Positions 887 through 60,500 of a DNA stretch of 64,000 bases are shown here, piece after piece. This stretch comes from Eledone cirrhosa (lineage: Eukaryota), in NCBI GenBank assembly GCA_964016885.1, contig OZ024747.1:32736001-32800000 (forward strand), given 5' to 3'. Made by a program: the position numbers and the translations under genes. The notes below the pieces were generated by a model that did not search any database, had not been told where the DNA came from, and saw only the letters and a list, made by a program, of their open reading frames with translations. The first letter of the stretch is position 1, and every line of letters begins with the position of its first letter.

Positions 887-969
887 ACTTCCAACTAATT
901 AGTTTCTCGAATGGAGTAAATATATTTTCCGAAGAAACACATAGAAAATCATTCCGTCATCAGGAAAGT
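887..969 (-). ncRNA. Type-I hammerhead ribozyme motif (family B, inverted copy)
   Basis: Reverse complement of 1032-1114. Confidence 0.7.
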
Positions 970-1031: not shown

Positions 1032-1114
1032 ACTTTCCTGATGACGGAATGATTTTCTATGTGTTTCTTCGGAAAATATATTTACTCCATTCGAGAAACT
1101 AATTAGTTGGAAGT
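1032..1114 (+). ncRNA. Type-I hammerhead ribozyme motif (family B)
   Basis: actttc-CTGATGA-cggaatg...cattcga-GAAA-ctaattag-tt-ggaagt. Stem I actttc/ggaagt, palindromic stem III, GUU triplet. Confidence 0.75.
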
Positions 1115-1556: not shown

Positions 1557-1638
1557 ACTTTCCTGATGACGGAATGATTTCCATGTTTTTCTTCGGAAAA
1601 TATATTTACTCCATTCCAGAAACTAATTAGTTGGAAGT
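1557..1638 (+). ncRNA. Type-I hammerhead ribozyme motif (family B, second unit)
   Basis: Same layout as 1032-1114, with stem II ggaatg/cattcc. It lies 525 nt downstream of the first. Confidence 0.75.
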
Positions 1639-4391: not shown

Positions 4392-4880
4392 TGGGATAAC
4401 AAGTTATCATTTTAGGTAATCCAGTTAGAGGTTGTGAGTACTCTGCACTATGGATAGTTTTATCGTACGGCGTTGTTTGACTCAATAAGAGGTTTCTTTA
4501 GTTAGATAGCGAGTTTGCGAGAATTCTCTTGTAGGTTATTTTTGGAGTAATAATAGTGAAAGAGTGGAGAATAACGTGGTCGGCTGTACACAAAGGGTTT
4601 TATTTCAAGTATTAACAATTGTTTCATTGATCAGGTGAGTCTAAAGGCCGCTAATCACTCAAAATTGCCTCACTCGACCTTAAATACAGTGTATGTCACT
4701 GATCAAATACAGTATTCTGATGATTTGATCACAGGCACACACTGTATTTAAGGTCGAGTGACGCAATTTTGAGTGATTAGCGGCCTTTACACTCACCTGA
4801 TCATTGAAACAATTGTTAATACAGTAAATAAAACTCTTTTTGTACAGCCGACCATGTTATTCTTCACTCTTTCACTACTA
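4392..4880. mobile_element. Inverted-repeat element in (TA)n with a hammerhead (arms about 4552-4692 and 4739-4878)
   Basis: The arms are diverged reverse complements and TA tracts flank both ends. Confidence 0.75.
4712..4822 (+). ncRNA. Type-I hammerhead motif with about 80-nt stem II region
   Basis: gtatt-CTGATGA-tttgatca...tgatcatt-GAAA-caattg-tt-aatac. Confidence 0.7.
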
Positions 4881-4958
<78 letters not shown>

Positions 4959-14329: not shown

Positions 14330-14396
14330 TTTTATCTGATGAAAACACAAATATTATTGCATGATGATATTTGTTTTTGAAATGCGCATAATAAAA
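14330..14396 (+). ncRNA. Type-I hammerhead ribozyme in the PLE 3' region
   Basis: ttttat-CTGATGA-aaacacaaatat...atatttgttttt-GAAA-tgcgca-ta-ataaaa. Confidence 0.8.
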
Positions 14397-26169: not shown

Positions 26170-29100
26170 TACACACCCCTCTACAAAATCCTAGTTCAGT
26201 GCCTCAAAAGTGGAGCACCGGTCACCCTGGCTCTCTAATAGCTATGGTAGCGGGACTCAATGTCCTGGCAGATTTTACCATGCCTCACAGGTATCAGACT
26301 ATTGGTCCTAGAGATGATTCATCATATTCTATAGTCAAAATCTAGCTAAACTGAAGAGGTACCAGCCTGCCCGCCCAGCCAGTGGGATGGCGTCATCTTA
26401 TGAAGAAAAGGGCCTCAGTACCCTGCGCGTCAATCGGGCCACTCCACGACGGCGGAATGCAACCCGAGCGACGAGAGGCTGTTAAGAATCACAGGTTCCC
26501 GAAGTCCGCCAAGGAACAGGACTAACCTTGCCATATGCACCAACAACTGCAGGTCTTTGGCAGGGGGCAATGGCTGAACCACCTAATGGAGAAGAAGAAG
26601 ATCAGGTGCGACCTGTTAGGGCTGTGCGAGACCCGCCAGAAGAAGGAGGCGAATTCACGATGGCAAGATTGATGCGCCTTGAGACTCGGGAAAGCAGAGG
26701 GTGCCAGATCGATCGGAGGTATACAGTTCATCGTAAGCAAGGAATGGACTTCGAAGGTCGCTTCTTGCCAGTTCATATCGTCACGGATTGGTGTACTGAA
26801 CGTGAACTATCTCAGGGAAAGCCACGCTCAAGATCGTCCAGACAGACCTACGCTTCCACAAGTGCCTGCGACAACGATGAGGCGGAAGAATTCTATCGCC
26901 AGCTAGACAAAGTGCTAGTTGTGAAGTCCACGTACACTGTCGTGATGGGAGACTTCAACGCAAAGGTCGGACAGGGACAACAAGGGAAGAGTATGCCGGA
27001 AGATTCGGCCTAGGGGAGCGAAATAAGAGAGCAGAGCGTCTGATCACCATGGCGGGGGCGAGACGGCTCTACATCGGAGGCAGCCTATTCAGGAAGAGGA
27101 GGGAGAATAGATGGACCTGGGTATCGCCAAATTCTGAGCACCGAAACGAGATTAACTACATCTTGGTCGACAAGCGACGCATACTGCAGGACGTCTCCGT
27201 CATAACGCCATTCAACACTAGGAGTGATCATCGTCTGGTGAGGGCGAGGATCGTCATCGACCGGACGAGGGAGAAGAAGGCGTTGCATTTGGCGTCGAAG
27301 GGAGAACGCGTCCGGGTCTTCAACGAGGCGCAGCTGCGGGAGGCCATTATGCAGGAAAAGTGGCGTCAAGGAGACGGCATAGACGCTGACTACGACTCAC
27401 TGATAGGGAAACTGAGGGAGTGCTTGGGAAGGGATGAGGGTGTGTGCCCGAGGGAACGGAGGGGCAGAGTCTCGGAGGAAACTATGAAGTTGCTTGAGAA
27501 GGAGAAGAATATGAAGAGGACACCTGAAGATCACCTCGAGTGTTCCCTTCTCAGCAGAGTGATACGTCAACAACTGAAGAGAGACTTCGAGGCATACCGG
27601 GTGGAGAATCTCCTAAAGGCCGCAAAGGAAAAGAAGAGCCTCAAGAAATGCGAGAGGGACATGACAATGTACAGATCGGAGGTGACGACCCTGAAAAACA
27701 CAGCTGGAATACCGGTCAGCGACAAGAGTGAGGTGGAAAAGGTTTGCGAAGACTTCTACACTAAGCTCTTCAAGTCTGCCGGGAATGTGCAGTCGTTGCC
27801 GTCACTCCAACAAGAAGAAAATGTGCCACACATCCTTGTCGGTGAGGTCGAGAGAGCTGTCGGCTTGATGAAAAGCGGAAAGGCGCCAGGGAAAGACAGC
27901 ATAACATCGGGGGTGTTGGAGTCAGGTGGAGAGCAGCTCTGGAAAATCCTCGCCGAGCGATTCACACACTATCTGGTCGAGGGAAGAATACCCTCGCAGT
28001 AGAAAGAGTCGAATACTATCCTGCTATACAAGAAGGGCGATAGAGAAGATCTGAGGAACTACCGACCCATATGCCTGCTGTTCACGAAGATAATCCTGAA
28101 CAGGTTATCACGTCATCTGGACGAACAGCAATCGAGAGAGCAAGCCGGCTTCCGGAAAAACTATAGCACGATGGACCACATATTTACTCTGACACAACTG
28201 CTTGAGCGAGCAAAAGAGTACAAGATGCCTCTTTGTGTCGCGTTCGTAGACTACGAGAAGGCCTTCGACAGCGTCGAAATCAACGCAGTGCTGAACTCGC
28301 TGCAGAGGCATCTGAACTTGCTGCGCATATATTCCGTGATGACGTCCCTCACGCTGGACTTCTGTCTGACGACTTCGCTCCTGGTGTGCTCTCTCAACGA
28401 GATTCCTAGCATTGATCTCTCCATGGCTCTTTGAGCCGTTACCAGCCTCTGCTCTTCTCTCTTCGTTGTAGCCCAAGTTTCACTGTCATATAACATTGCA
28501 GGTAAAACTGTGCTATTGAAGAGGTTGGCGCGGGTGTTCTTGTCCAACCTCCCCTTGAGCACATCCCTTATGCCGTTGAACGCCTTCCACCCGGCCCTTA
28601 CTCTCCGCGAGATTCTCCCTCTCAATGTCTCGGCGCATGTTCACTTCTTGTCCCAGGTAGACATATTCCTCCACCTCCTCTAGTTCATCACCGCCAACCA
28701 CCATTCGACCTGTTGGTACGTTGTCGGACCACATGAACTTCGTTTTCATGCGGTTCATCTTGAGGCTTACTGCAGAGCCTTTGATGTCGAGCTCTGTCAG
28801 CATGGTCTGAAACTGATCCGTGGTTTCAGCGATGAGTACGATGTCATCAGCGAAACGGAGGTGAGTAAGTATCTCGCCGTTGATGTTGACACCGCCTTGC
28901 CAGTCAATGCCTCTGATGATCTGCTCGAGACACGCGGTGAAAAGTTTTGGAGAGATCGTATCTCGCTGCTTCACTCCCTTCTCGGCGCAATACGTTCAAC
29001 TGCTCAGGCAGGCGGGTTCCGGATGCTCTATCGACATAGCTCTGCTGTCATCACCTGTACGAGTGCCGGTCGAGAAGGGAGGGAAGCAACGAGATACGAT

Positions 29101-29961
29101 CTCTCCAAAACTTTTCACCGCGTGTCTCGAGCAGATCATCAGAGGCATTGACTGGCAAGGCGGTGTCAACATCAACGGCGAGATACTTACCCACCTACGT
29201 TTCGCTGATGATATCGTACTCATCGCTGAAACCACGGATCAGTTTCAGACCATGCTGACGAAGCTCGACATCAAAAGCTCTGCAGTAAGCCTCAAGATGA
29301 ACCGCATGAAAACGAAGTTCATGTGGTCCGACAACGTACCAACAGGTCGAATGGTGGTTGGCGGTGATGAACTAGAGGAGGTGGAGGAATACGTCTACCT
29401 GAGACAAGAAGTGAACATGCGCCGAGACATTGAGAGGATGGAAGGCGTTCAACGGCATAAGGGATGTGCTCAAGGGGAGGTTGGACAAGAACACCCGCGC
29501 CAACCTCTTCAATAGCACAGTTTTACCTGCAATGTTATATGACAGTGAAACATGGGCTACAACGAAGAGAGAAGAGCAGAGGCTGGTAACGGCCCAAAGA
29601 GCCATGGAGAGATCAATGCTAGGAATCTCGTTGAGAGAGCACACCAGGAGCGAAGTCGTCAGACAGAAGTCCAGCGTGAGGGACGTCATCACGGAATATA
29701 TGCGCAGCAAGTTCAGATGTGCTAGACACGTCGCTCGGTTCACCGATAATCGGTGGACCCGCGCAGTTGCCGAGTGGTACCCGCGCGAGCGGAAACGACT
29801 ACTCGGAAGGCCTCCACGAGGGTGGAGTTACGATTTTAAGAATACGATTGGGACTACATGGATGAGGAAAGCACGATCCAGAGAGGAATGGACGGCGTGC
29901 TGTGACCAGCGGCGCTGAATGGACGTCCGACAGACTGGTCGGTCAAGGTGATCAAGGTGAT
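26170..29961 (+). mobile_element. RTE-clade LINE, near full length and frameshifted, with an internal inverted duplication (about 28307-28978)
   Basis: APE motifs VMGDFNAK, EINYILV and SDHRLV; RT motifs QAGFR, FVDYEKAFDS and LRFADD; C-terminal RPP..W; tail caaggtgat x2. Confidence 0.92.
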
Positions 29962-30385
29962 ATACACACCTACCCCCACACACACACATATATATATATA
30001 TACGTACACAGATATATACATATATACACAGTTATATACATATATATACATATATATAAAAATATATATACATATATTAAGTGTAAGGAATTCTTTTACA
30101 ATGGAATTAGCTCGAAAGGAAATATTCCTGAGCCGTGTATAAAAGTAATATATATGAGTAATATATATGATGAAACAGATACCAACATATCTGTATTTAT
30201 ATTGCAAAAGAAAGTTAGCCAGACTGAAGAATATTAATTATTTTACCACAGTTCGTCCACATCGATTTAAAATAATAATAATAATAAATCGACAAAAACT
30301 AGCTGTGCCGCCAAATGGCTATGATGTTTATACATATTTAAATTTCAAAGTCAAACCTGTTCAGTAGATAAGTTTAAACCTCAAA

Positions 30386-30456
30386 ATCCAAACATGTTTC
30401 GAGATGGATACGTGTATAAGTGTAGGAATATCTTGCCACTGCTCTCCTCAGTAAAC
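30386..30456 (-). ncRNA. Hammerhead motif (30 kb/41 kb family)
   Basis: Reverse complement of 30978-31048. Confidence 0.6.
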
Positions 30457-30977
30457 ATCCAGAGACAATTGATAAGCTTCACTTCTAAATAATTTAAAAG
30501 ACTGTGTGACGCACATGGGTTCACAGATTCAGGCTAGTCTCATAACCGGGCTGCTAGAAATAACAGTCGTATATATGAGGCGAATTTTAGCTCGACGAAG
30601 AGCCGTTATATTAAGTGTAAGGAATTCTTTTACAATGGAATTAGCTCGAAAGGAAATATTCCTGAGCCGTGTATAAAAGTAATATATATGAGTAATATAT
30701 ATGATGAAACAGATACCAACATATCTGTATTTATATTGCAAAAGAAAGTTAGCCAGACTGAAGAATATTAATTATTTTACCACAGTTCGTCCACATCGAT
30801 TTAAAATAATAATAATAATAAATCGACAAAAACTAGCTGTGCCGCCAAATGGCTATGATGTTTATTCATATTTAAATTTCAAAGTCAAACCTGTTCAGTA
30901 GATAAGTTTAAACCTCAAAATCCAAACATGTTTCTTTTAAATTATTTAGAAGTGAAGCTTATCAATTGTCTCTGGAT

Positions 30978-31048
30978 GTTTACTGAGGAGAGCAGTGGCA
31001 AGATATTCCTACACTTATACACGTATCCATCTCGAAACATGTTTGGAT
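30978..31048 (+). ncRNA. Hammerhead motif (30 kb/41 kb family)
   Basis: gttta-CTGAGGA-gag...ctc-GAAA-catg-tt-tggat. Stem I relies on G-U wobbles. Confidence 0.6.
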
Positions 31049-31313
31049 TTTAAGGTTTAAACTTATCTACTGAACAGGTTTGACTTTGAAATTTAAATAT
31101 GTATAAACATCATAGCCATTTGGCGGCACAGCTAGTTTTTGTCGATTTATTATTATTATTATTTTAAATCGATGTGGACGAACTGTGGTAAAATAATTAA
31201 TATTCTTCAGTCTGGCTAACTTTCTTTTGCAATATAAATACAGATATGTTGGTATCTGTTTCATCATATATATTACTCATATATATTACTTTTATATACA
31301 TATATATATATAT

Positions 31314-32572: not shown

Positions 32573-32681
32573 GTCGCATATATGTTATAGAATACTATTA
32601 GCTTCTCGCTAAAACAATCTCTATACCTTTCATTTATATATATATATATATTTTTTTTTCTTATATCAAAGTTTAATGGGC

Positions 32682-32806
32682 TTCCACTGATGATTTATAA
32701 ACGCCCACCTAAATATATTCTTACATGAATGTATATTAGGCTTCTACATAAACTGGAAATATTCTCCGAATTTGTAGAAAACTTATAATGAAACAATTGT
32801 TTGGAA
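32682..32806 (+). ncRNA. Type-I hammerhead with about 96-nt branched stem II
   Basis: ttcca-CTGATGA-tttataa...ttataat-GAAA-caattg-tt-tggaa. Confidence 0.75.
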
Positions 32807-33675
32807 AGAGAGATATATTTTAACTTTAATTATATCTCATAAAATAATACAACTGGCTTTTCCACATAATACATATTGTTAGCACCCCAAACACTTTAAT
32901 TGGGTTTATATTAAAATATAACCTAATGTTTGTTGAGTGAGATGGTTACCAGTCAGAGATTAGCTTTAAACTATCTCTGTTATTGTATTAATATTTTACT
33001 CTTGATTGGCCAGAGGTGTTTATTTCCAGGTACCTTATAAATTTGACTTTCCGTATTTATTACTGTTGTGCGATATTGTGGTTTTTATTGGTTGTAACTT
33101 CTCTGTTTTTTAGCCTAAGAAAAAATATATATGCCTATGTATATAATTACATGCATACATTTATTTTTTTTAATTAATTGAGTTCTTTACACGAGGAATT
33201 GATATTAGTTTTGAAATAACTAATTAACCCGCGTGTGTTTTATATTTTACTCTTAATTCGGCCGGAGATTTACATTCCCATTTGCACTTTAAAGCATAAC
33301 TTTCCGTATTTACTACGGTTACGAGATGCGGTTTCTTATTCAGGTACAACCTCTGATTTAGCCGAAGAAAATATCTATATGCGTGTGTAATTTATACACG
33401 CATATATTTATTTTTTTAATTGAGTTCTTAACACGTTGGATTGATAATGTTTTCGAAAAAACTGTTTAACCCGCGTGTATATTATTTGTTTTCCTCCTTT
33501 CGTGGATCGTGGTTGTCTCCCCTTCTCGCTTAGTGACGCTATAATACTTCCTCAGTCAAAAACTGCTGGAATTTCAAATTTGCCGGTCACTCGATGCGGG
33601 AAGGAGCAACTTAACAGACACGATTTTTAACTACGGTAAGAACATTTTTTTTTCTTATATCAAAGTTTAATGGGC

Positions 33676-33800
33676 TTCCACTGATGATTTATAAACGCCC
33701 ACCTAAATATATTCTTACATGAATGTATATTAGGCTTCTACATAAACTGGAAATATTCTCCGAATTTGTAGAAAACTTATAATGAAACAATTGTTTGGAA
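33676..33800 (+). ncRNA. Type-I hammerhead with about 96-nt branched stem II (second copy)
   Basis: Same sequence as 32682-32806. Confidence 0.75.
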
Positions 33801-34194
33801 AGAGAGATATATTTTAACTTTAATTATATCTCATAAAATAATACAACTGGCTTTTCCACATAATACATATTGTTAGCACCCCAAACACTTAAATTGGGTT
33901 TATATCAAAATATAACCTAATGTTTGTTGAGTGAGATGGTTACCAGTCAGAGATTAGCTTTAAACTATCTCTGTTATTGTATTAATTATATATATATATA
34001 TATAAAGAAAAAAAGGTGAAATTGAAAATGCAACTGGACTCTTATTTTAAAAAAAATATATATATTTATTTGGTTTCTTTACCGGTTTCGCAGTTCTTCT
34101 GCTTTCCAAAAGTAGAGTTGAGATGGAGGGTCTGTGGTTTTTCTCACATCTGGTTGGTCTTTGAATGTTACTTGTTTTATATGTAAAAAAAGTG

Positions 34195-41195: not shown

Positions 41196-42538
41196 TAATA
41201 TGTATGTGATGAAACACAGATACCAACACATCTGTATATATATTGCGAAAGAAAAATTTAGCCAGATTGAAGTATACTAATTATTATACTACAGTTTGTC
41301 CATATCGATTTAAAATAATAAATCAATGGAGACGAACTGTATTGGCAAAAGGCCGTGATGTTTAGACACATTTAAATTTCAAAATCAAACCTGTTCCGTA
41401 GATAAGTTTAGACTTTAAGATCCAAATATGTTTCGAGTTAAATAAGTGTAGGAATATCAAGTCCCGCACTCCTCAGTAAACATCCAGAGACAAATTGATA
41501 TGCTTCACTTCTAAATAATTTAAAAGACTGCGTGGCGCACATGGCTTTACAGTATCTAACTAGTCTCATAACCGTACTGCTAGAAATAACAGTCGTGTAT
41601 ATGAGGTGGCTTTGCAGCTCAAACTAGGAGCAGATTAAAATTAATAAGGTAATGAATTCTTTTACAATGGAATCAGCTCGAATGAGGAAAAAATATATCC
41701 CATGAGCAGTGTATAAATTAATATGTATGTGATGAAACACAGATACCAACACATCTGTATATATATATTGCGAAAGAAAAATTTAGCCAGATTGAAGTAT
41801 ACTAATTATTATACTACAGTTTGTCCATATCGATTTAAAATAATAAATCAACGGAGACGAACTGTATTGGCAAAAGGCCGTGATGTTTAGACACATTTAA
41901 ATTTCAAAATCAAACCTGTTCCGTAGATAAGTTTAGACTTTAAGATCCAAATATGTTTCGAGTTAAATAAGTGTAGGAATATCAAGTCCCGCTCTCCTCA
42001 GTAAACATCCAGAGACAAATTGATATGCTTCACTTCTAAATAATTTAAAAGACTGCGTGGCGCACATGGCTTTACAGTATCTAACTAGTCTCATAACCGT
42101 ACTGCTAGAAATAACAGTCGTGTATATGAGGCGGCTTTGCAGCTCAAACTAGGAGCAGATTAAAATTAATAAGGTAATGAATTCTTTTACAATGGAATCA
42201 GCTCGAATGAGGAAAAAATATATCCCATGAGCAGTGTATAAATTAATATGTATGTGATGAAACACAGATACCAACACATCTGTATATATATATTGCGAAA
42301 GAAAAATTTAGCCAGATTGAAGTATGCTAATTATTATACTACAGTTTGTCCATATCGATTTAAAATAATAAATCAACGGAGACGAACTGTATTGGCAAAA
42401 GGCCGTGATGTTTAGACACATTTAAATTTCAAAATCAAACCTGTTCCGTAGATAAGTTTAGACTTTAAGATCCAAATATGTTTCGAGTTAAATAAGTGTA
42501 GGAATATCAAGTCCCGCACTCCTCAGTAAACATCCAGA
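41192..42538 (-). mobile_element. Tandem array of about 2.6 copies of a 525-nt non-coding unit, each with a hammerhead motif (41420-41481, 41945-42006, 42470-42531), in (TA)n
   Basis: The units are near-identical. The minus strand reads gttta-CTGAGGA-g(a/t)g...ctc-GAAA-cata-tt-tggat. Diverged relative of 30073-31298. Confidence 0.85.
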
Positions 42539-42623
42539 TTATTAATATATATATATATATATATATAAATATTAAAACAATGAAATTAAACACAAAACTG
42601 TTAATTCATAATGAAACTCATTA

Positions 42624-42810
42624 CGGTGGATTGGCAGTATCGGTAGAGGGTCGGACGCCATGCTTTCCAGCATAGTTACCTCCCTTTACGATCTGAGTTC
42701 AAATCCCGCCGAGGTTGACTTTGCCTTTCATCCTTACGGGGTCGATAAAATAAAGTACCAGTAATGCACTGGGTAATTGCTGGCCTTGTGCCTAAAGTAG
42801 AAACAATTAT
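42624..42810 (+). mobile_element. tRNA-derived SINE inserted in the left arm, splitting hammerhead stem I
   Basis: A-box tggcagtatcgg and B-box gagttcaaatccc. It is absent from the right arm. Confidence 0.9.
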
Positions 42811-43780
42811 TTTACGATCGTTTCTGGGGGTAGTTCCTGCATGTTCATTCAATTATTGATCTATGTAAAACATATTACGAAATATCATAGTAAGAAAAAG
42901 ATACATACGTCTTCACGACCCGCCGTCTTCAGAAATAATGAGTTTTGTTTATTGAAGAATACAAAAAAACATACATATGAATAAGTAAGGTTTTATAACC
43001 AGGTTGAAATTGACCAATTGCAAGAATGGATAGAGGCAGTATAGATACTTAAAGTTGGTGGTAGTAGATGAATAAATAGGCCATATATACAAACGGTTGT
43101 AATTGTAGAATAAAAGATAATTGCCCCTTGCTTAATTAATAATATAGTATATAAATGTGTAATCACCACAAAGGACTCTAATCAATCCTATATAGGATCC
43201 ACTTCTAATCCATTTAAATCGAGATTTTATGCACACACCCACAGTTTCCGAAACACAAAATTAGCTAATACCTCTTCTTTAGCAGAAGTAGTTAATAATT
43301 GTAAAAAGAGGAATATTAAATATAACCTAACTTGGAAGATTCTTACGGGAGCTATTTCTTATCAGGGTAATAGAAAGGAGTGCGGACTGTGTTCCCAAGA
43401 AATTTTTGAAATTACTAAATCAAAGGACACTCTATTAAATAAAAGACAAGAATTAATTTTAGTATGTAACCATAAAATTAGAAGGACATTCAAATATTAT
43501 AAATACAACTAAACAAATATAGAAAATGATATAGGTGAATAAATGTGTGAGTATATGTGTGTGTGAATATGTATATCTGTGTGTGTATATGTATGTATAT
43601 GCATGGGTGTATGCCTATATATAGACATGTGTGAGTGTACATGTATATGTACGTATGAATATAGTAAGTGTATGTGTGTGCATGTGTATATATATATGTG
43701 TATATATGTGTGTCAGTATACGTGTGTATATGTATATATGTGTACATATATGCGTATGTAGATCTATGTACACACACAAA

Positions 43781-44250: not shown

Positions 44251-44398
44251 AAACTCATTATTTCTGAAGACGGCGGGTAGTAAAGGCGTATGTATTTTTT
44301 TCTTACTATGATATTTTGTAATATGTTTTACATAGATCAATAATTGAATGAACATACATGGAACTACCCCCCAGAAACGATCGTAAAATAATGAGTTT
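44251..44398 (+). ncRNA. Type-I hammerhead with 13-bp stem I and about 103-nt stem II region (mirror copy 42806-42945 on the minus strand)
   Basis: aaactcattattt-CTGAAGA-cggcgggtagt...actaccccca-GAAA-cgatcg-ta-aaataatgagttt. Confidence 0.82.
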
Positions 44399-48600: not shown

Positions 48601-49682
48601 TAGTGGTGGAACACTGGAAGGTAATATCCGTAGTGGTAGAGCACTCAGTCCAAGGGACGAGTTAGGTAGAAGTGGTTACACAACAGTTAGTTGACCATAC
48701 CGAGATCAATTGTTTCACCTTAGCGGATCCTCAGCTCGGAATGGGCATGGTTATAGGAACAGGAAGGACAACCGTACGAACGCGCATGCACAGAAACCCA
48801 GTCACTTCACACAGGCAATACTAGACTGCGTGCGGGAGGTGTAAGGGAGATAACTGCGAAAGTCCGAAAAGTTTTTAGGTTGAAAATAAAATTACAAGGA
48901 ATCAGTCCGGAGCCTTGTAGTTTTGCAATAGGTGTTTGGCGACGTGTGAAAAATTCACTTCTCGTTTTTAGGCAATCACTATTGCGTAATCTCTTTAGAA
49001 TAGTTATTCGTTCGTCAATACATAAGCCACACGTCGGATTTCCCCTTGCGTATGGCTTGGACTTAGTGATGGCTTTTCATTGAATGGAGTAGTCTATACT
49101 TGAGTCCTTGAGGGACCATACGTGGCTCGCGAGTTTCGTGGATGAACGTCTGTGCGGGTACCTGAAGGTAGACTGGTGGTTCAGCAAACGTTCCTTGAAT
49201 CGGCCCTCCGCCATGCCCACATAGGATTTGACCTCCTGTGGTTCGTTTGGTCGGTTGGAAGTGACCACACCTTCATAGATTACAGCTGGTGTGTTGCATT
49301 GCTGTTGAAAGGGGCAAGCTTCAGGCTTACGGCAAGAGCACCCTGGTGGGGTGTTGCTCCTAGGGCTGCTGGTGATGTAGGCCTCCATGTTCTTTCGCAG
49401 GAGTATCCTAGTTTAACTTTGTGTCGTTTAAAGATGGAGCGGTATTTATGACCTATGGGGTGTCTATCTAAGAGGGCTACAAATTTTTGTCTAAGTGGTA
49501 TTTATGACCTATGGGGTCTAAGTGTCTATCTAAGAGGGCTACAAATTTTTGAAAAAAACTTTTCAAAAAATTTTTGGAAAAAAATTTGTAACCCTCTTAG
49601 ATAGACACTTCCCCATAGGTCATAAATACCGCTCCATCTTTAAACGACACAAAGTTAAACTAGGATACTCCTGCGAAAGAAC

Positions 49683-50180
49683 ATGAAGGCCTACATCACC
49701 AGCAGCCCTAGGAGCAACACCCCACCAGGGTGCTCTTGCCGTAAGCCTGAAGCTTGCCCCTTTCAACAGCAATGCAACACACCAGCTGTAATCTATGAAG
49801 GTGTGGTCACTTCCAACCGACCAAACGAACCACAGGAGGTCAAATCCTATGTGGGCATGGCGGAGGGCCGATTCAAGGAACGTTTGCTGAACCACCAGTC
49901 TACCTTCAGGTATTCGCACAGACGTTCATCCACGAAACTCGCGAGCCACGTATGGTCCCTCAAGGACTCAAGTATAGACTACTCCATTCAATGGAAAGCC
50001 ATCACTAAGTCCAAGCCATACGCAAGGGGAAATCCGACGTGTGGCTTATGTATTGACAAACGAATAACTATTCTAAAGAGATTACGCAATAGTGATTGCC
50101 TAAACACGAGAAGTGAATTTTTCACACGTTGTCCACACGTCGCCAAACACCTATTGCATAACTACAAGGCTCCGGACTGA
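49683..50180 (+). pseudogene. Naiad-type GIY-YIG endonuclease domain (RT missing)
   Basis: CSCRKPEACPFQQQC..VIYEG..YVGMAEGRFKERLLNH..LASHVWSLK..CGLC..LNTRSE..CPH. Confidence 0.85.
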
Positions 50181-50342
50181 TTCCTTGTAATTTTATTTTC
50201 AACCTAAAAACTTTTCGGACTTTCGCAGTTATCTCCCATACACCTCTCGCACGCAGTCTAGTATTGCCTGTGTGAAGTAACCGGGTTTCTGCGCATGCGC
50301 GTTCGTACGGTTGTCCTTCCTGTTCCTATAACCATGCCCTTT

Positions 50343-50382
50343 CCGAGCTGAGGATCCGCTAAGGGGAAACAATTGTTCTCGG
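50343..50382 (+). ncRNA. Minimal type-I hammerhead (mutated mirror copy 48700-48739; decayed pieces at 25383-25658)
   Basis: ccgag-CTGAGGA-tcc-gctaa-ggg-GAAA-caattg-tt-ctcgg. Confidence 0.82.
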
Positions 50383-50429
50383 TATGGTGAACTAACTGTT
50401 GTGTAAACATTTCAATATATATATATATA

Positions 50430-50955
50430 TAATAAGGGTTGACTGACCCAGCATATTTATCAATGCCAGTACCGGTTGTATCTCAGCGCACTCAATGGAC
50501 AATGTAAGATACATTACCAGAGTATACACATAGTTATTTGCCTCAACACAACACACGTAAAACGGGTGCCTATAAGGTTCCCGGACTCGAGTTTCTGCCT
50601 CACTAATGCAGCAGTAAGGTGCACTACACCATCTGTCTGCATATATTATGCAACAATGCACAATCGGCTTATGCGGCTTCATCAGCGGGTATCGCTTAAT
50701 CAATAACCAATCGATCGACAGAATCCAAACACCGGCCCAAGCCGGTCATGACTGTTTGTGACAACCGACACGGTAAAGCGATTAGCAACTGGCAACCGAT
50801 AGGACTCTATCTCACCACTAGCCACTGATTTACAAATTTTACGTGGGGACGGGAAGCTAAAAAGAATCAATCTTTAGTTCCTGTCAGAAGCACTCAGCCA
50901 ACGTGTCTCACACACAAATTATCAAGGGGTGAAAAGATGGCTATTAGAATCGCAC
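50430..50955 (-). mobile_element. Non-coding hammerhead element (family G) in (TA)n
   Basis: Diverged reverse-complement homologue of 55990-56480. Confidence 0.75.
50580..50689 (-). ncRNA. Type-I hammerhead with about 83-nt structured stem II (family G)
   Basis: The minus strand reads cccg-CTGATGA-agcc...ggca-GAAA-ctcgag-tc-cggg. Confidence 0.78.
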
Positions 50956-51469: not shown

Positions 51470-54810
<3,341 letters not shown>

Positions 54811-55664: not shown

Positions 55665-56480
55665 AAGGTAAACAATTTTTCACCTTTTTTTTAATTGTTT
55701 TGTTTTGATATTTGCTCTAATTGCTGCTATTAATTTTCTCTCTCACCACTTATTGAATCATTTAAGTTGTGAAATAGACTGGTTTACACACGTGGCTGTC
55801 ACTAACCCTCGTGCTACTTTATGTCACTGATGCTGATATGTAATGTCCGATAAAGGTTCTAGGCACTACCACTGTTACTGTCGCTATCCTATTGCCATGA
55901 GACTTGGAGACTAGAGCTGAATGCTACCATTCTACTATACAACGATGTGGGACTGCTTTTTCTAATAACCAAATTTTCACTATCTTATTAATTTATGTTT
56001 GAGACACGTTGACTGGGGGTTTTTGACGGGAGCTGAAACATTTGTTTTCTAATCTCCTGCCACCACTTAAATTTGTAAATCGGTGGCCGATCGGGGGACA
56101 GAATTGTATCAGATTCCAGTTGCTAATCACTTTATGTGACGGCCGTCAGAAACAGTCATAGCCGGCATGGACTGGAGTTGAATTCTGTCGATCGATTGGT
56201 TATTGATTAGGCGATACCCGCTGATGAAGCCACATACGCCGATTATGCATTGTTGCACAGGTTATGCAGACAGAGGGTGCAATGCACCCTACTGCTGCAT
56301 TAAGTGTCGCCGAAACTCCAGTCCGGGAACTTATATAGGCACCCGTTTTACGTGTGTTGTATTGAAGCGAATAACTATGTGTATATTCTGGGAATGTATC
56401 CTACATTATCTATTGAGTACGCTGAGATACAACCAGTCCTGGCATTGATAAATATGCTGGGTCCGTCAACTCCTTATTAT
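55665..56480 (+). mobile_element. Non-coding hammerhead element (family G) in (TA)n
   Basis: Homologous to 50430-50955 and flanked by TA tracts. Confidence 0.7.
56217..56327 (+). ncRNA. Type-I hammerhead with about 84-nt structured stem II, GUC site (family G)
   Basis: cccg-CTGATGA-agcc...gtcgcc-GAAA-ctccag-tc-cggg. Confidence 0.75.
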
Positions 56481-56861: not shown

Positions 56862-57510
56862 AATAAAAGTATGTGTCCTTTATGTAATTAATACATACAG
56901 GGATACAAGTATAGTCCGTATGCCAGTGTTATTCAATAGCAAGTTAATAAATTAACAAGCCAGAACATAAAATCTAAGGAGTGTAAACACAGAAAATATC
57001 TTACCTAGATAAATGCCACAATGGCGCCTAGCATTCTATTGTAATATTTTACGGAGAAAAAGAAATCCTTTGTTATTTTTTCACTGAGCTTTCCTCTCCA
57101 CATGGACTACCAACATTAAACATGCAGCCTTATAACCTAATCTTCCTTAATCTTCCTGCAACCAAAAAAATCATTATTTTAAAGAACCTTTCTGCTAAAA
57201 TACAAAAACCAAACACTATTAAAGGGACCAAAAAAGAAAAAAAAAGTAAATGAAAAGCATAAAAAGAAATAAGAATCAAGCAACGAGGGAAAGGAAGTTG
57301 AGGAGGGACAAACACTACACCCCAGTCTGAATGTTGCCTCAGCTATGTCTTGCAGACAAAATTCATTGATTCTAAAAGAGGAATAAATAGTTCTTTTACA
57401 TGCTTCAACTAGATTGTATCAGCAATGGAAAGACCAATGGAAACATTGTTTCTTTGCTCTGATTTGACAAGTTCCACACCACTATATGTAAATAAATTAC
57501 CATATATATA

Positions 57511-60500
57511 TTGCGTACGCACCCCAATCCGGACTGCCCGGCACTATAAAAGACAGATTCTATGAGACACTGATGCTAACTACCTCCCAAATATCCGACA
57601 GTGACTATATAATTATCGCAGGCGACCTAAATGGTCACGTTGGACAACATTGTGACGGCTACGATGAAATCCATGGAGGCTATGGGTTTGGTACTAGAAA
57701 TGAGGAAGGCTCCAGAATCCTGGAATTCTGTGATGCAAATAACCTAACTATCTGTAACACTAACTTCAAAAAACGTGACAATCACCTGATCACCTATAGA
57801 TCCGGGGAACACACAAGCCAGGTAGATTATATCCTTACCAGAAGACGTGACAGAGTGTCTGTTGTAAACACTAAATCCCTCCCCCATGAAGAATGCACCT
57901 CCCAACATAGACTGATAATTAGCGACCTCATAGTCAGGACGAGACGTACTCGACAGCAGAAGAGGACTATCCTCAGGAGAAAAATATGGAAGCTAAAGGA
58001 CCCCACAGCCAGGAATAAATTTCAAAGCATATTACTTGATGCTTTCGACAGTAAGGAAGAACATTTAGAGTCGGACAATATAGAGGGAGAGTGGGAATTT
58101 CTGAAAGCAAACCTGCTGTTGGCGACAGACGAAGTCTGTGGCTGGAGCAGGCCTGTAGGCAGGAGGAGAGTAACATGGTGGTGGAACAGTAAGGTGGAGG
58201 GGTCAATTAAGGCCAAAAAGCAGGCTTGGAAAGTATGGCGGGATGGGGGAAGTAGAGAAGACTATCAAGTGGCCAGGAGGGAAACTAGGAGACAAGTGTA
58301 CTTAGCAAGAAGGGAAGCTGAGGAAAGAAAGTTCAAGCATGTTCTACAACGCGATGACCAAAAACGTGAGGTGTTCAGGATTGCTAGGCAATGCGTCAAG
58401 GAAAACCGTGATATTGTCGGGGAGAAGTGTGTACTAAACGACGATGGCACACTTGCCATCACCGACGCTGATAAGAAGGTAGCTTGGAAGTGTCACTATG
58501 AAAGGCTACTAAATGAGGAGAATAAATGGGAGAAAGACAGTCTCCCCCATATCGACCCAATAGAGGGACCAGCAGTGTTAGTCGAGGGGAGTATAATAAG
58601 TAAGGCAATCAAGGATATGAAGACGGGTAAGGCGGCTGGGCCTTCGGAAATAGTTGCTGAGATGCTGAAGGCATCTGGCACGGTGGGACACACAATGGTC
58701 ACCCGCATAGTTAACCAAGTCGTACAGAATGGGGTTGTTCCGAAGGACTGGCATAGCAGCATCATCGTTAACTGTTATAAGGGTAAAGGAGACGCCCTAG
58801 ATAGGAGTAACTATAGAGGCATTAAATTAATCGACCAGGTCATGAAGGTCACGGAAAAAGTAATAGCGCAACTAATCAGAGAGAGAATTGACCTAGATGA
58901 AATGCAGTTCGGGTTTGTGTCAGGCAAAAGTACCACAGACGCTCTTTTCATAGTACGACAACTACAGGAGAAGTACCTAGCTAAAGGTAAACCCCTCTAC
59001 TTAGCTTTTGTCGACTTGGAGAAAGCCTTCGACAGAGTCCCCCGCTCCATTATCTGGTGGGCTCTTAGAAAACTAGGCGTTGACGAATGGCTTGTGAGGG
59101 CTATACAAGCCATGTATAAAGAAACAGTCAGCAAGGTTAGAATTAACAACGAATATAGTGAAGAGTTTAGCGTAAAAGTTGGCGTCCATCAGGGCTCTGT
59201 TCTCAGCCCACTACTATTTATTATTGCCCTTCAGGCTATAACAGAGGAGTTCAAGACAGGCTGCCCATGGGAACTCCTATACGCAGACGACCTGACACTC
59301 ATAGCGGAATCAATGGCCGAGCTAGAGAAGAAATTCCAAACATGGAAGCACGGCCTAGAGTCAAAAGGACTTAAAATTAACCTGGCTAAGACCAAAGTAC
59401 TAGTTTGTAGGAAAGAAAACAAGGCGGCGGTCCCTTCTGGGAAATGGTCGTGCTCGGTGTGTAGGAAAGGCGTAGGTAGAAACTCCATTTTATGTCCTAA
59501 ATGCAAAGTATGGGTGCATAAAAGATGTAGTGGGATCACAGGTAAGCTAACTAAGAACATAGATTTTACATGTGGCCGGTGTTCTGGTGCAATAAGTAGC
59601 AGCAAGTGCCCACAAAATACTAGCTCTTTCAATTGCGCAGAGGGTTCTATAGAAATAGTGGACAGCTTCCGTTAACTGGGCGATAAAATCAGCAGTGGGG
59701 GTGGGTGCTCTGAAAGTACTGTAGCTAGAGTCAGAACTGGTTGGAAAAAGTTCAGAGAGCTTATACCACTATTAGCTGCTAAAAGGTTCTCCCTAAAAAT
59801 GAAAGGCAGGTTGTACGATGCCTGCATACGAACAGCAATGCTGCATGGCAGTGAGACCTGGGCATTGTGTGCAGAGGATATACGCAGACTAGAGAGGAAC
59901 GAAGCTTGCATGCTCCGCTGGATGTGTAACAGTAATATACGTGAACGGCAAAGCATAAACGAACTAAGGAAAAAATTAGAGATAAGAGGGATCAGATGCT
60001 GTTTACTCGAGAGAAGACTACGTTGGTATGGACATGTGATGCGCATGAAAGTCGATAGCTGTATAACAAAGTGCAGGGCAATAAAGATAGACGGTAGTCA
60101 CGGAATAGGCAGACCTAGAAAAACCTGGGACGAGCTGATAAACTCCGACATCACACACTTACACCTCTCCAAGACAATGTCACTGGACCGAGACCTTTGG
60201 CGGTACTCAGTAACAGAGAAAACCCGCCTTACCTAAATATATAGTAAAACCTACTCCAGCCAGTAGGCATCTCTAACAAAATACACCCCGTCCCACCACC
60301 ACCACCCCCACCCCATCCACACCACCCCGTTCTATGTAAAGGTATGTTGGTGCCGCGCCATCGAGGCCGAAACAAATGAGATCGTGTAGGTGTCACGACA
60401 AAAAAACACACAGTCCACGCTGTAATGTGGCCGTGTAGGCAACACGGTAAAAACCTCCCAGACCCACACTGTAAATGTGGTTGGTGTTAGGAAGGGCATC

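Follow-up and report, generated by a model that had tools for sequence, protein, structure and literature searches.

Hammerhead ribozymes of metazoan Penelope-like elements (PLEs) have been described as type I motifs with a CUGANGA/GAAA core, a short stem I and a palindromic stem III for cleavage in dimers, located in the pseudo-LTRs of the elements and split, within each genome, into numerous sequence families (Cervera and de la Pena 2014, PMC4209133). The hammerheads of Eledone cirrhosa analyzed here share all these traits. They differ by their stem II: a helix II of 6-8 bp is termed large in that account, whereas here stem II spans 50-116 nt, is predicted to form a three-way junction in two families, and comes in some cases with a predicted pseudoknot to the flank. 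With the hammerheads of Hydra-clade PLEs (Craig et al. 2021, PMC8557442), they have in common U-U at the base of stem II, GUU or GUA triplets and (TA)n targets, but stem II is 11-26 nt in that clade (about 23 nt in Hydra-1_oBim), and far longer here. PLE stems above the usual length are already in print in the same paper: the hammerhead of PLE-X1_sMoe, from a spike moss, has a 9-bp stem and a 35-nt loop (~53 nt) and is flagged as deviating, and eight Naiads are annotated with an "HHR_half_core", the half cores being 35-50 nt apart. Both are single cases of about half the length reported here, and the account given in that paper does not extend to their structure or covariation. Its core-only hammerhead search used a 7-17-nt spacer.

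Animal non-LTR retrozymes offer a further likeness, as they are tandem arrays of non-coding units that each carry a single type I hammerhead (PMC7229834; bioRxiv 10.64898/2026.07.22.740005). According to Li et al. (2026, bioRxiv 10.64898/2026.07.22.740005), retrozymes measuring 51-972 bp originate from the ends of PLEs; the ~1-kb unit described below is at the top of that range, with a stem II far longer than those reported for retrozymes. In axolotl, too, U-U is known at the stem II base of the retrozyme hammerhead (Cervera and de la Pena 2020, PMC7229834; Li et al. 2026).

About 40% of hammerheads are reported to be stabilised by pseudoknots, among them a Watson-Crick pseudoknot between stems I and II that replaces loop-loop contacts, like the one predicted here (Perreault 2011, PMC3088659). 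Those described there are mostly prokaryotic and have a very short stem II, whereas here a long stem II holds the pairing strand, in its junction or in an internal loop. In the rodent discontinuous Clec2 hammerhead, the insertion lies in stem I. This ribozyme is also a natural hammerhead split by a large insertion, but it occupies a single locus, in a host mRNA 3' UTR, unlike the repeats studied here (Weinberg et al. 2019, PMC6765202). Long stem II is not mentioned in the parts covered of the reviews PMC6765202, PMC6155905, PMC6466107 and PMC8490949, and no published account of PLE or retrozyme hammerheads that we found describes a stem II that is branched or 80-116 nt long; cases may be present in Lunse 2017 and in the supplements of Perreault, Cervera and the bioRxiv preprint.

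The locus lies in a stretch of 64,000 nucleotides (contig OZ024747.1 of assembly GCA_964016885.1, 3.0 Gb), hereafter called the window, which has 35% GC and is rich in (TA)n tracts and in PLE and LINE fragments. A complete type I hammerhead motif, with three helices around the core, an open-ended stem I and a U16.1-H17 triplet, was found at 32682-32806 (+). Its parts, and those of the repeat that carries it, are the following.

32650-33643 (+): one 994-bp non-coding tandem unit, 5'-truncated beside a (TA)n tract
32677-32681 (+): TGGGC, 5' strand of the predicted pseudoknot, predicted to pair with 32703-32707
32682-32686 (+): stem I, 5' strand TTCCA, pairing with TGGAA at 32802-32806 (5 bp)
32687-32693 (+): catalytic core, its first half: CUGAUGA (CTGATGA)
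32694-32789 (+): stem II spacer, 96 nt, with U at both ends (positions 10.1 and 11.1)
32694-32700 (+): U10.1 and 5' arm TTATAA of the stem II basal helix, pairing with 32783-32788; U11.1 is 32789
32703-32707 (+): junction strand GCCCA, 3' strand of the predicted pseudoknot
32708-32740 (+): inner hairpin 1, 13 bp with one bulge (arms 32708-20/32727-40)
32742-32779 (+): inner hairpin 2, made of TTCTACA/TGTAGAA (32742-48/32773-79), an internal loop and a GGA/TCC helix
32790-32801 (+): GAAA (32790-93), palindromic stem III ACAATTGT (C-AATT-G) and GUU triplet; predicted cut after 32801
33644-33986 (+): 3' terminal repeat, or pseudo-LTR, with (TA)n behind it; contains the second identical hammerhead
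33676-33800 (+): second hammerhead, identical to the focal copy, its dimer partner in a tandem transcript

An earlier note, made from the letters of the window, had placed the two core halves about 96 nt apart with two inner hairpins between them. The gap is exactly 96 nt, from 32694 to 32789, and both hairpins were found as given. Stem II of the focal copy is predicted to consist of a 6-bp basal helix (TTATAA/TTATAA), a short single strand and the two hairpins, i.e. a three-way junction. The insert folds with a z-score of -4.75, and equal stability was reached in none of 200 shuffles. The stem III palindrome has a predicted self-duplex energy of -6.4 kcal/mol. By inspection of the alignment of subfamily copies, a T-A pair of stem I is changed to C-G in subfamily D. 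A possible intron donor, GTAAG, before the motif was considered and rejected, as this same subfamily does not keep it.

The focal motif stands at the start of a 343-bp direct repeat, whose two copies are 99.4% identical and spaced by 994 bp, and which closes a ~1-kb unit with a longest Met ORF of 32 aa. Dispersed copies are 99-100% identical (best 40 of 1,039 candidates); copies have a common 3' end and a variable 5' end, form tandem arrays and sit in microsatellite targets. Of 24 unit spacings, 23 measured 963-1000 bp and one 720 bp. The unit holds an internal 250-bp duplication, 74% identical (32988-33243 / 33239-33485), present as a single copy in the 720-bp subfamily units. A pattern covering the whole clan gave 3,676 matches, a lower bound on copies, against 3 for the control. 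The focal repeat thus has the architecture of a non-autonomous PLE, or non-LTR retrozyme.

In 73 of 106 copies, the first (TA)4+ tract lay 180-199 nt beyond the predicted cut. Since copies end about 190 nt past an intact ribozyme, the template would have been uncut or circular RNA, with an internal start of the reverse transcriptase (RT). No autonomous partner with the focal 3' end was found by blastn of the unit against the examined loci, which returned clan members and short low-complexity matches only. Four of 113 focal-clan copies do follow Hydra-type ORFs (at L108, L144, L149 and L289); these look like nested insertions and were rejected as partners, with slightly less certainty for L149, which has no long TA tract. 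Judging from the U-U stem II base, the odd and even palindromes and the (TA)n targets, the mobilising RT is likely of Hydra type.

The structure of the insert was analyzed on an alignment of 18 natural copies picked across subfamilies. Its helices were paired in 93.3% of the cells, compared with 86.0% in shuffles and 24-51% in slid controls. Two-sided changes were present in 6 of 23 insert pairs, a count that is not above that of shuffles (191 of 500), and most of those in hairpin 1 sit on a single lineage split. The inserts do show covariation across copies, which the earlier note had proposed as a check. Hairpin 1 is 88.7% paired and shows compensatory change in 5 of its 13 pairs, whereas the outer helix of hairpin 2 is without covariation: six of its seven pairs never vary, so that TTCTACA/TGTAGAA is conserved yet uninformative on pairing. 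The inner helix of hairpin 2 shows one A-U to U-A change. The TAA that follows the outer helix is also invariant while hairpin 1 diverges, and the invariance of both was also seen in searches whose patterns had left them free. The TTATAA/TTATAA basal helix, in contrast, was imposed by these patterns, so its invariance is no evidence. When subfamily substitutions were placed randomly on the focal insert (gaps left out, rows not independent), random folds beat the natural one in 0, 0, 1, 7, 12, 14, 27 and 81 of 400 cases for the eight copies. The two-hairpin junction was predicted for 8 of 9 natural representatives of the clan. The focal insert is best read as a structurally selected, tolerated extension.

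A further element of structure, absent from the earlier note, involves the flank. The sequence TGGGC immediately 5' of stem I can base-pair with GCCCA, located shortly after the basal helix, and this pseudoknot was predicted independently by RNAalifold and RNAfold. In the focal clan alignment, 87.8% of its cells are paired, with no two-sided change; the family at 1032 has equal geometry, with one G-C to A-U two-sided change. Flank complementarity over 20 families averaged 9.7, with permuted pairs at 8.76 +/- 0.48 (10 of 300), and it was absent from the 44251, 50580 and 4712 families. This excess is only modest, and a pseudoknot general to all families was rejected. In the focal clan, the predicted pseudoknot would likely link stems I and II, a role normally played by loop-loop contacts. 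The hammerhead fold computed without it has -20.0 kcal/mol, compared with -29.0 kcal/mol for the predicted minimum; being 9 kcal/mol above that minimum, it is not expected to cleave efficiently without help.

We consider it fairly probable, from the sequences and the predicted folds, that this type I hammerhead in a PLE-like terminal repeat carries its 96-nt stem II as a selected extension, likely serving mainly to help the ribozyme fold. The two hairpins would close the weak basal helix and present the short strand that pairs with the 5' flank, instead of making a loop-loop contact. In a tandem transcript, two copies would be joined through the 8-nt stem III palindrome and cut after GUU, either at a slow rate or assisted by the element protein, and the unit-length RNA pieces may circularise. 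The PLE RT, acting in trans on RNA that is uncut or circular, would start about 190 nt beyond the cut site, which would yield the more-than-unit, 5'-truncated copies. An internal RT start has been reported for a lizard PLE, and a protein-assisted PLE hammerhead has been reported as well (PMC11167929).

The same observations can be turned another way. The earlier note had suggested a protein-binding, RT-recruiting or regulatory module, whereas what was found here speaks in the first place for folding. The insert might mainly be a handle by which the PLE RT-endonuclease, or a host protein, recruits the RNA in trans and/or switches cleavage, a tentative idea with a real but minor chance of being right. 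The invariant sequence of hairpin 2 and of the TAA behind it, next to a diverging hairpin 1, fits binding better than pure folding, although in a young clan such invariance can reflect mere recency. The motif is about 190 nt from the inferred RT start, and a PLE hammerhead is reported to require its protein to cleave (PMC11167929). However, the insert clusters have no common sequence or shape, and a close Hydra-type element in the window, at 50348, manages with an 11-nt stem II. An aid to folding and a protein handle are compatible, and both can be true.

Constraint was also assessed in the catalytic core. With the core left free in the pattern, CTGANGA was kept in 94 of the first 100 of 2,006 focal-clan matches; N7 was T in 62 of these, A in 24 and C in 8, the six deviants were scattered, and at the subfamily level core variation is confined to N7. 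With the 3' half left free, GAAA was kept in 99 of the first 100 copies listed. Among these first 100, the stem III palindrome is swapped whole, with AATT, GATC, GGCC or an odd form of 5 nt at its centre, and N17 takes U, C or A but in no case G. Positions 10.1 and 11.1, which are 95 nt apart, co-vary between U-U and G-C: genome-wide, we counted 166 G-C, 47 G-U, 11 U-C and at least 916 U-U pairs (0 in reversed controls), and 166 of the 177 cases of C11.1 had G10.1. At this place the canonical pair is G-C, and U-U is a natural variant that is tolerated (Perreault 2011, PMC3088659). At the level of sequence, this coupling is the strongest evidence that both halves form one ribozyme fold, and the combination of a free N7, G10.1-C11.1, N17 other than G and a kept palindrome is exactly the pattern of catalytic constraint. 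The predicted hammerhead likely still cuts.

This pattern is hard to reconcile with a hammerhead silent in vivo, whose core and stems would persist through recent descent or as a structural element of an RNP, and whose insert would be neutral filler needing only to stay folded. We regard such silence as quite improbable, even though stem I is weak, the basal helix holds A-U pairs only, U-U at 10.1/11.1 and GUU prevail in the largest subfamilies, and the hammerhead fold is not the predicted minimum. Published data point the same way as these weaknesses: PLE insertion in vitro did not need cleavage (PMC11167929), and eight of nine Xenopus retrozyme dimers did not cleave (bioRxiv 10.64898/2026.07.22.740005).

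How often such long stems occur was estimated with two descriptors. The strict one gave 26 matches in 664 kb, with 0 in eight shuffles and 0 on reversed sequence. The relaxed one gave 80 matches in a 1,264-kb sample, composed of the window and 120 stretches of ten kb, of which 40 flank the window; the shuffle mean was at most 0.1 per bin (10 shuffles) and the reversed control gave 0. Eight matches belonging to the 42001/30983 family were dropped from the count, leaving 72 hammerheads. Stem II was at least 46 nt in 38 of these 72 and exceeded 60 nt in 24 of them, shares that are upper estimates because the relaxed descriptor misses some short motifs (38207, 5196). The 24 hammerheads above 60 nt fall in eight sequence clusters. 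Chance pairing of CTGANGA with a distant GAAA in AT-rich repeat DNA is hardly credible as an explanation: both words are short and common, and the 42001/30983 family was indeed first assigned to a distant GAAA, but the shuffled and reversed controls are near zero, there is long-range covariation, and for the focal clan the 10.1/11.1 coupling refutes it.

The family in question (42001/41476/42526/30983/30451) was rejected as a case of 89-98-nt stem II, since it folds with a 35-44-nt stem II and a long stem III. It corresponds to a ~525-bp tandem repeat at 41380-42540 (-), 30350-30460 (-) and 30970-31110 (+), in which the stem III hairpin is ~65 nt long; cleavage as a monomer is thus possible on structural grounds, unlike in most animal PLE hammerheads.

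The prediction that standard covariance models would miss long-stem hammerheads held for Rfam: at the gathering threshold it has no match in the 64-kb window, and at E<=10 no hammerhead model matched in 32600-32900. In the E-value run on the whole window, the best 150 of 404 rows were all of the microsatellite-driven miRNA type. As the window's short hammerheads likewise escape Rfam at the gathering threshold, the miss is not specific to long ones and is rather a limit of the models.

The window holds several other hammerhead families with a long stem II.

887-969 (-): further copy of the 1032 family
1032-1114 (+): hammerhead, 50-nt unbranched stem II, predicted flank pseudoknot
1557-1638 (+): further copy of the 1032 family
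4712-4822 (+): hammerhead, 82-nt stem II; 410 pattern matches, controls 0; insert fold z = -0.62
42804-42945 (-): inverted copy of the 44251 hammerhead, 101 nt, a typical 5' inverted PLE fragment
43114-43512 (+): endonuclease fragment (C-terminal GIY-YIG) from the 44251 element, with 66% identity to P0001, whose clade it joins (99/99)
44251-44398 (+): hammerhead, 103-nt unbranched stem II, part of the terminal repeat in a PLE family of Hydra type
50580-50689 (-): hammerhead, stem II of 83 nt with two hairpins; 459 pattern matches for the family, controls 0
56217-56327 (+): member of the 50580 family, 84-nt stem II, with a point change in its stem III palindrome

The earlier note had given the spacings of these motifs, called their stems branched, and seen in them one expanded class recurring in unrelated families. 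The spacings stand (103 nt at 44251, 83 at 50580, 84 at 56217, 82 at 4712 and 50 at 1032). Branching is restricted to part of the families. The two-hairpin fold was predicted for 112 of 113 focal-clan copies and 28 of 29 copies of the 50580/56217 family, but for none of the 73 copies of the 44251 family or the 15 of the 1032 family, which are predicted to be single rods with internal loops; with one copy out of two, the 4712 family is ambiguous. Several sequence families with genuine hammerhead-type motifs are indeed present, yet they do not make one branched class, as inserts have no common sequence across clusters. Nor are all families unrelated, as those of 4712 and L192 share insert motifs by eye. 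Stem II takes the form of rods of 50, 61, 72, 90 and 101-116 nt and of branches of 83 and 96 nt. Its far end points away from the active site, and families have likely lengthened it separately.

The 1032 family, organized in ~550-bp tandem units, gave 8,507 pattern matches (controls 0) and shows two-sided changes in 9 of 23 pairs overall. The 44251 family gave 8,751 matches (controls 0) and includes an element with a 6.6-7.1-kb unit and an intact 813-aa ORF, in which RT is followed by a GIY-YIG endonuclease at the C-terminus, with a hammerhead in both pseudo-LTRs. The CNCR..C..PL..C linker and the (TA)n target are both present. By eye, the SLKNIP start and the CNCR-x-C-PLxG-C linker of its protein are as in the Hydra rows of PMC8557442, where Hydra-clade elements are 1-3 kb long, compared with 6.6-7.1 kb here. 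P0001 has no Pfam match. Naiad identity, considered in view of the widely spaced half cores of Naiads, was rejected for this family, because the endonuclease of P0001, as of the elements here, is C-terminal, whereas that of Naiads is N-terminal. At L272:4425-8176, the autonomous 44251-family element contains a 3' region of ~3.7 kb packed with (TA)/(TG) microsatellites, much longer than in the Hydra elements described by Craig et al. 2021; in older relatives this region is 0.7-1.4 kb.

In a tree of endonucleases (41 rows), the 44251 family forms one clade; the tree cannot count independent stem II expansions, as most of its rows have no reliably linked hammerhead. Long stem II was also found after Hydra-type endonuclease ends at L050 and L192. 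A separate family with a U3-A8 core (UUGAAAA), a U-U base and a 72-nt stem II, which escapes CTGANGA-based scans, has 246 pattern matches (seen at L289:5407-5495 (-), G000:C1:127375406-127375494). A Hydra-type ORF lies upstream of it, and the endonuclease of this ORF is the sister of the one in the 81-nt L192 family.

More hammerhead motifs, with 11-50-nt stem II, are present at 14336, 15999, 24909, 38207/37288, 50348/48734, 36336, 51171 and 5196, and stem II lengths form a continuum across the window. We take these motifs to belong to Neptune-, Poseidon- and Hydra-like fragments, an assignment made by motif. Inverted retroelement insertions have produced long near-perfect inverted repeats at 48669-50413, 28309-29719, 4550-4881 and 832-1169. 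Two RTE-type LINE ORFs with endonuclease and RT lie at 57492-60236 (+), nearly intact with one stop, and at 26881-29918. A 3.2-kb (TA)n-rich tract with a short flank is duplicated in tandem at 51474-54777.

Going by these sequences, long stem II is a recurrent property of PLE hammerheads in the Eledone cirrhosa genome, and not one shared module. The long-stem hammerhead is apparently a structural variant of the known PLE/retrozyme hammerhead, real, selected and abundant, and undescribed at such size. A bolder proposal, which we think unlikely, would make stem II an evolvable port that repeatedly gained 50-116-nt structured domains binding RT and gating cleavage, forming a large hidden class in invertebrate genomes; the "hammerhead-less" Naiads would then carry such hammerheads unseen, as published descriptors capped the spacer at 7-17 nt.

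Censuses of hammerheads depend on descriptors and models made for a short stem II. In our sample, which is close to random, a third of the detected motifs (an upper estimate) exceed 60 nt in stem II; the long-stem families total more than 20,000 pattern matches, and one of them belongs to an intact, recently amplified PLE. If long-stem hammerheads cleave, published counts, and claims of hammerhead-free PLE clades, would need re-checking. The subfamily series, with its U-U or G-C base, three palindromes and three triplets on one scaffold, would then be a natural mutant panel, bearing on what PLE hammerheads do and on how the element protein assists them.
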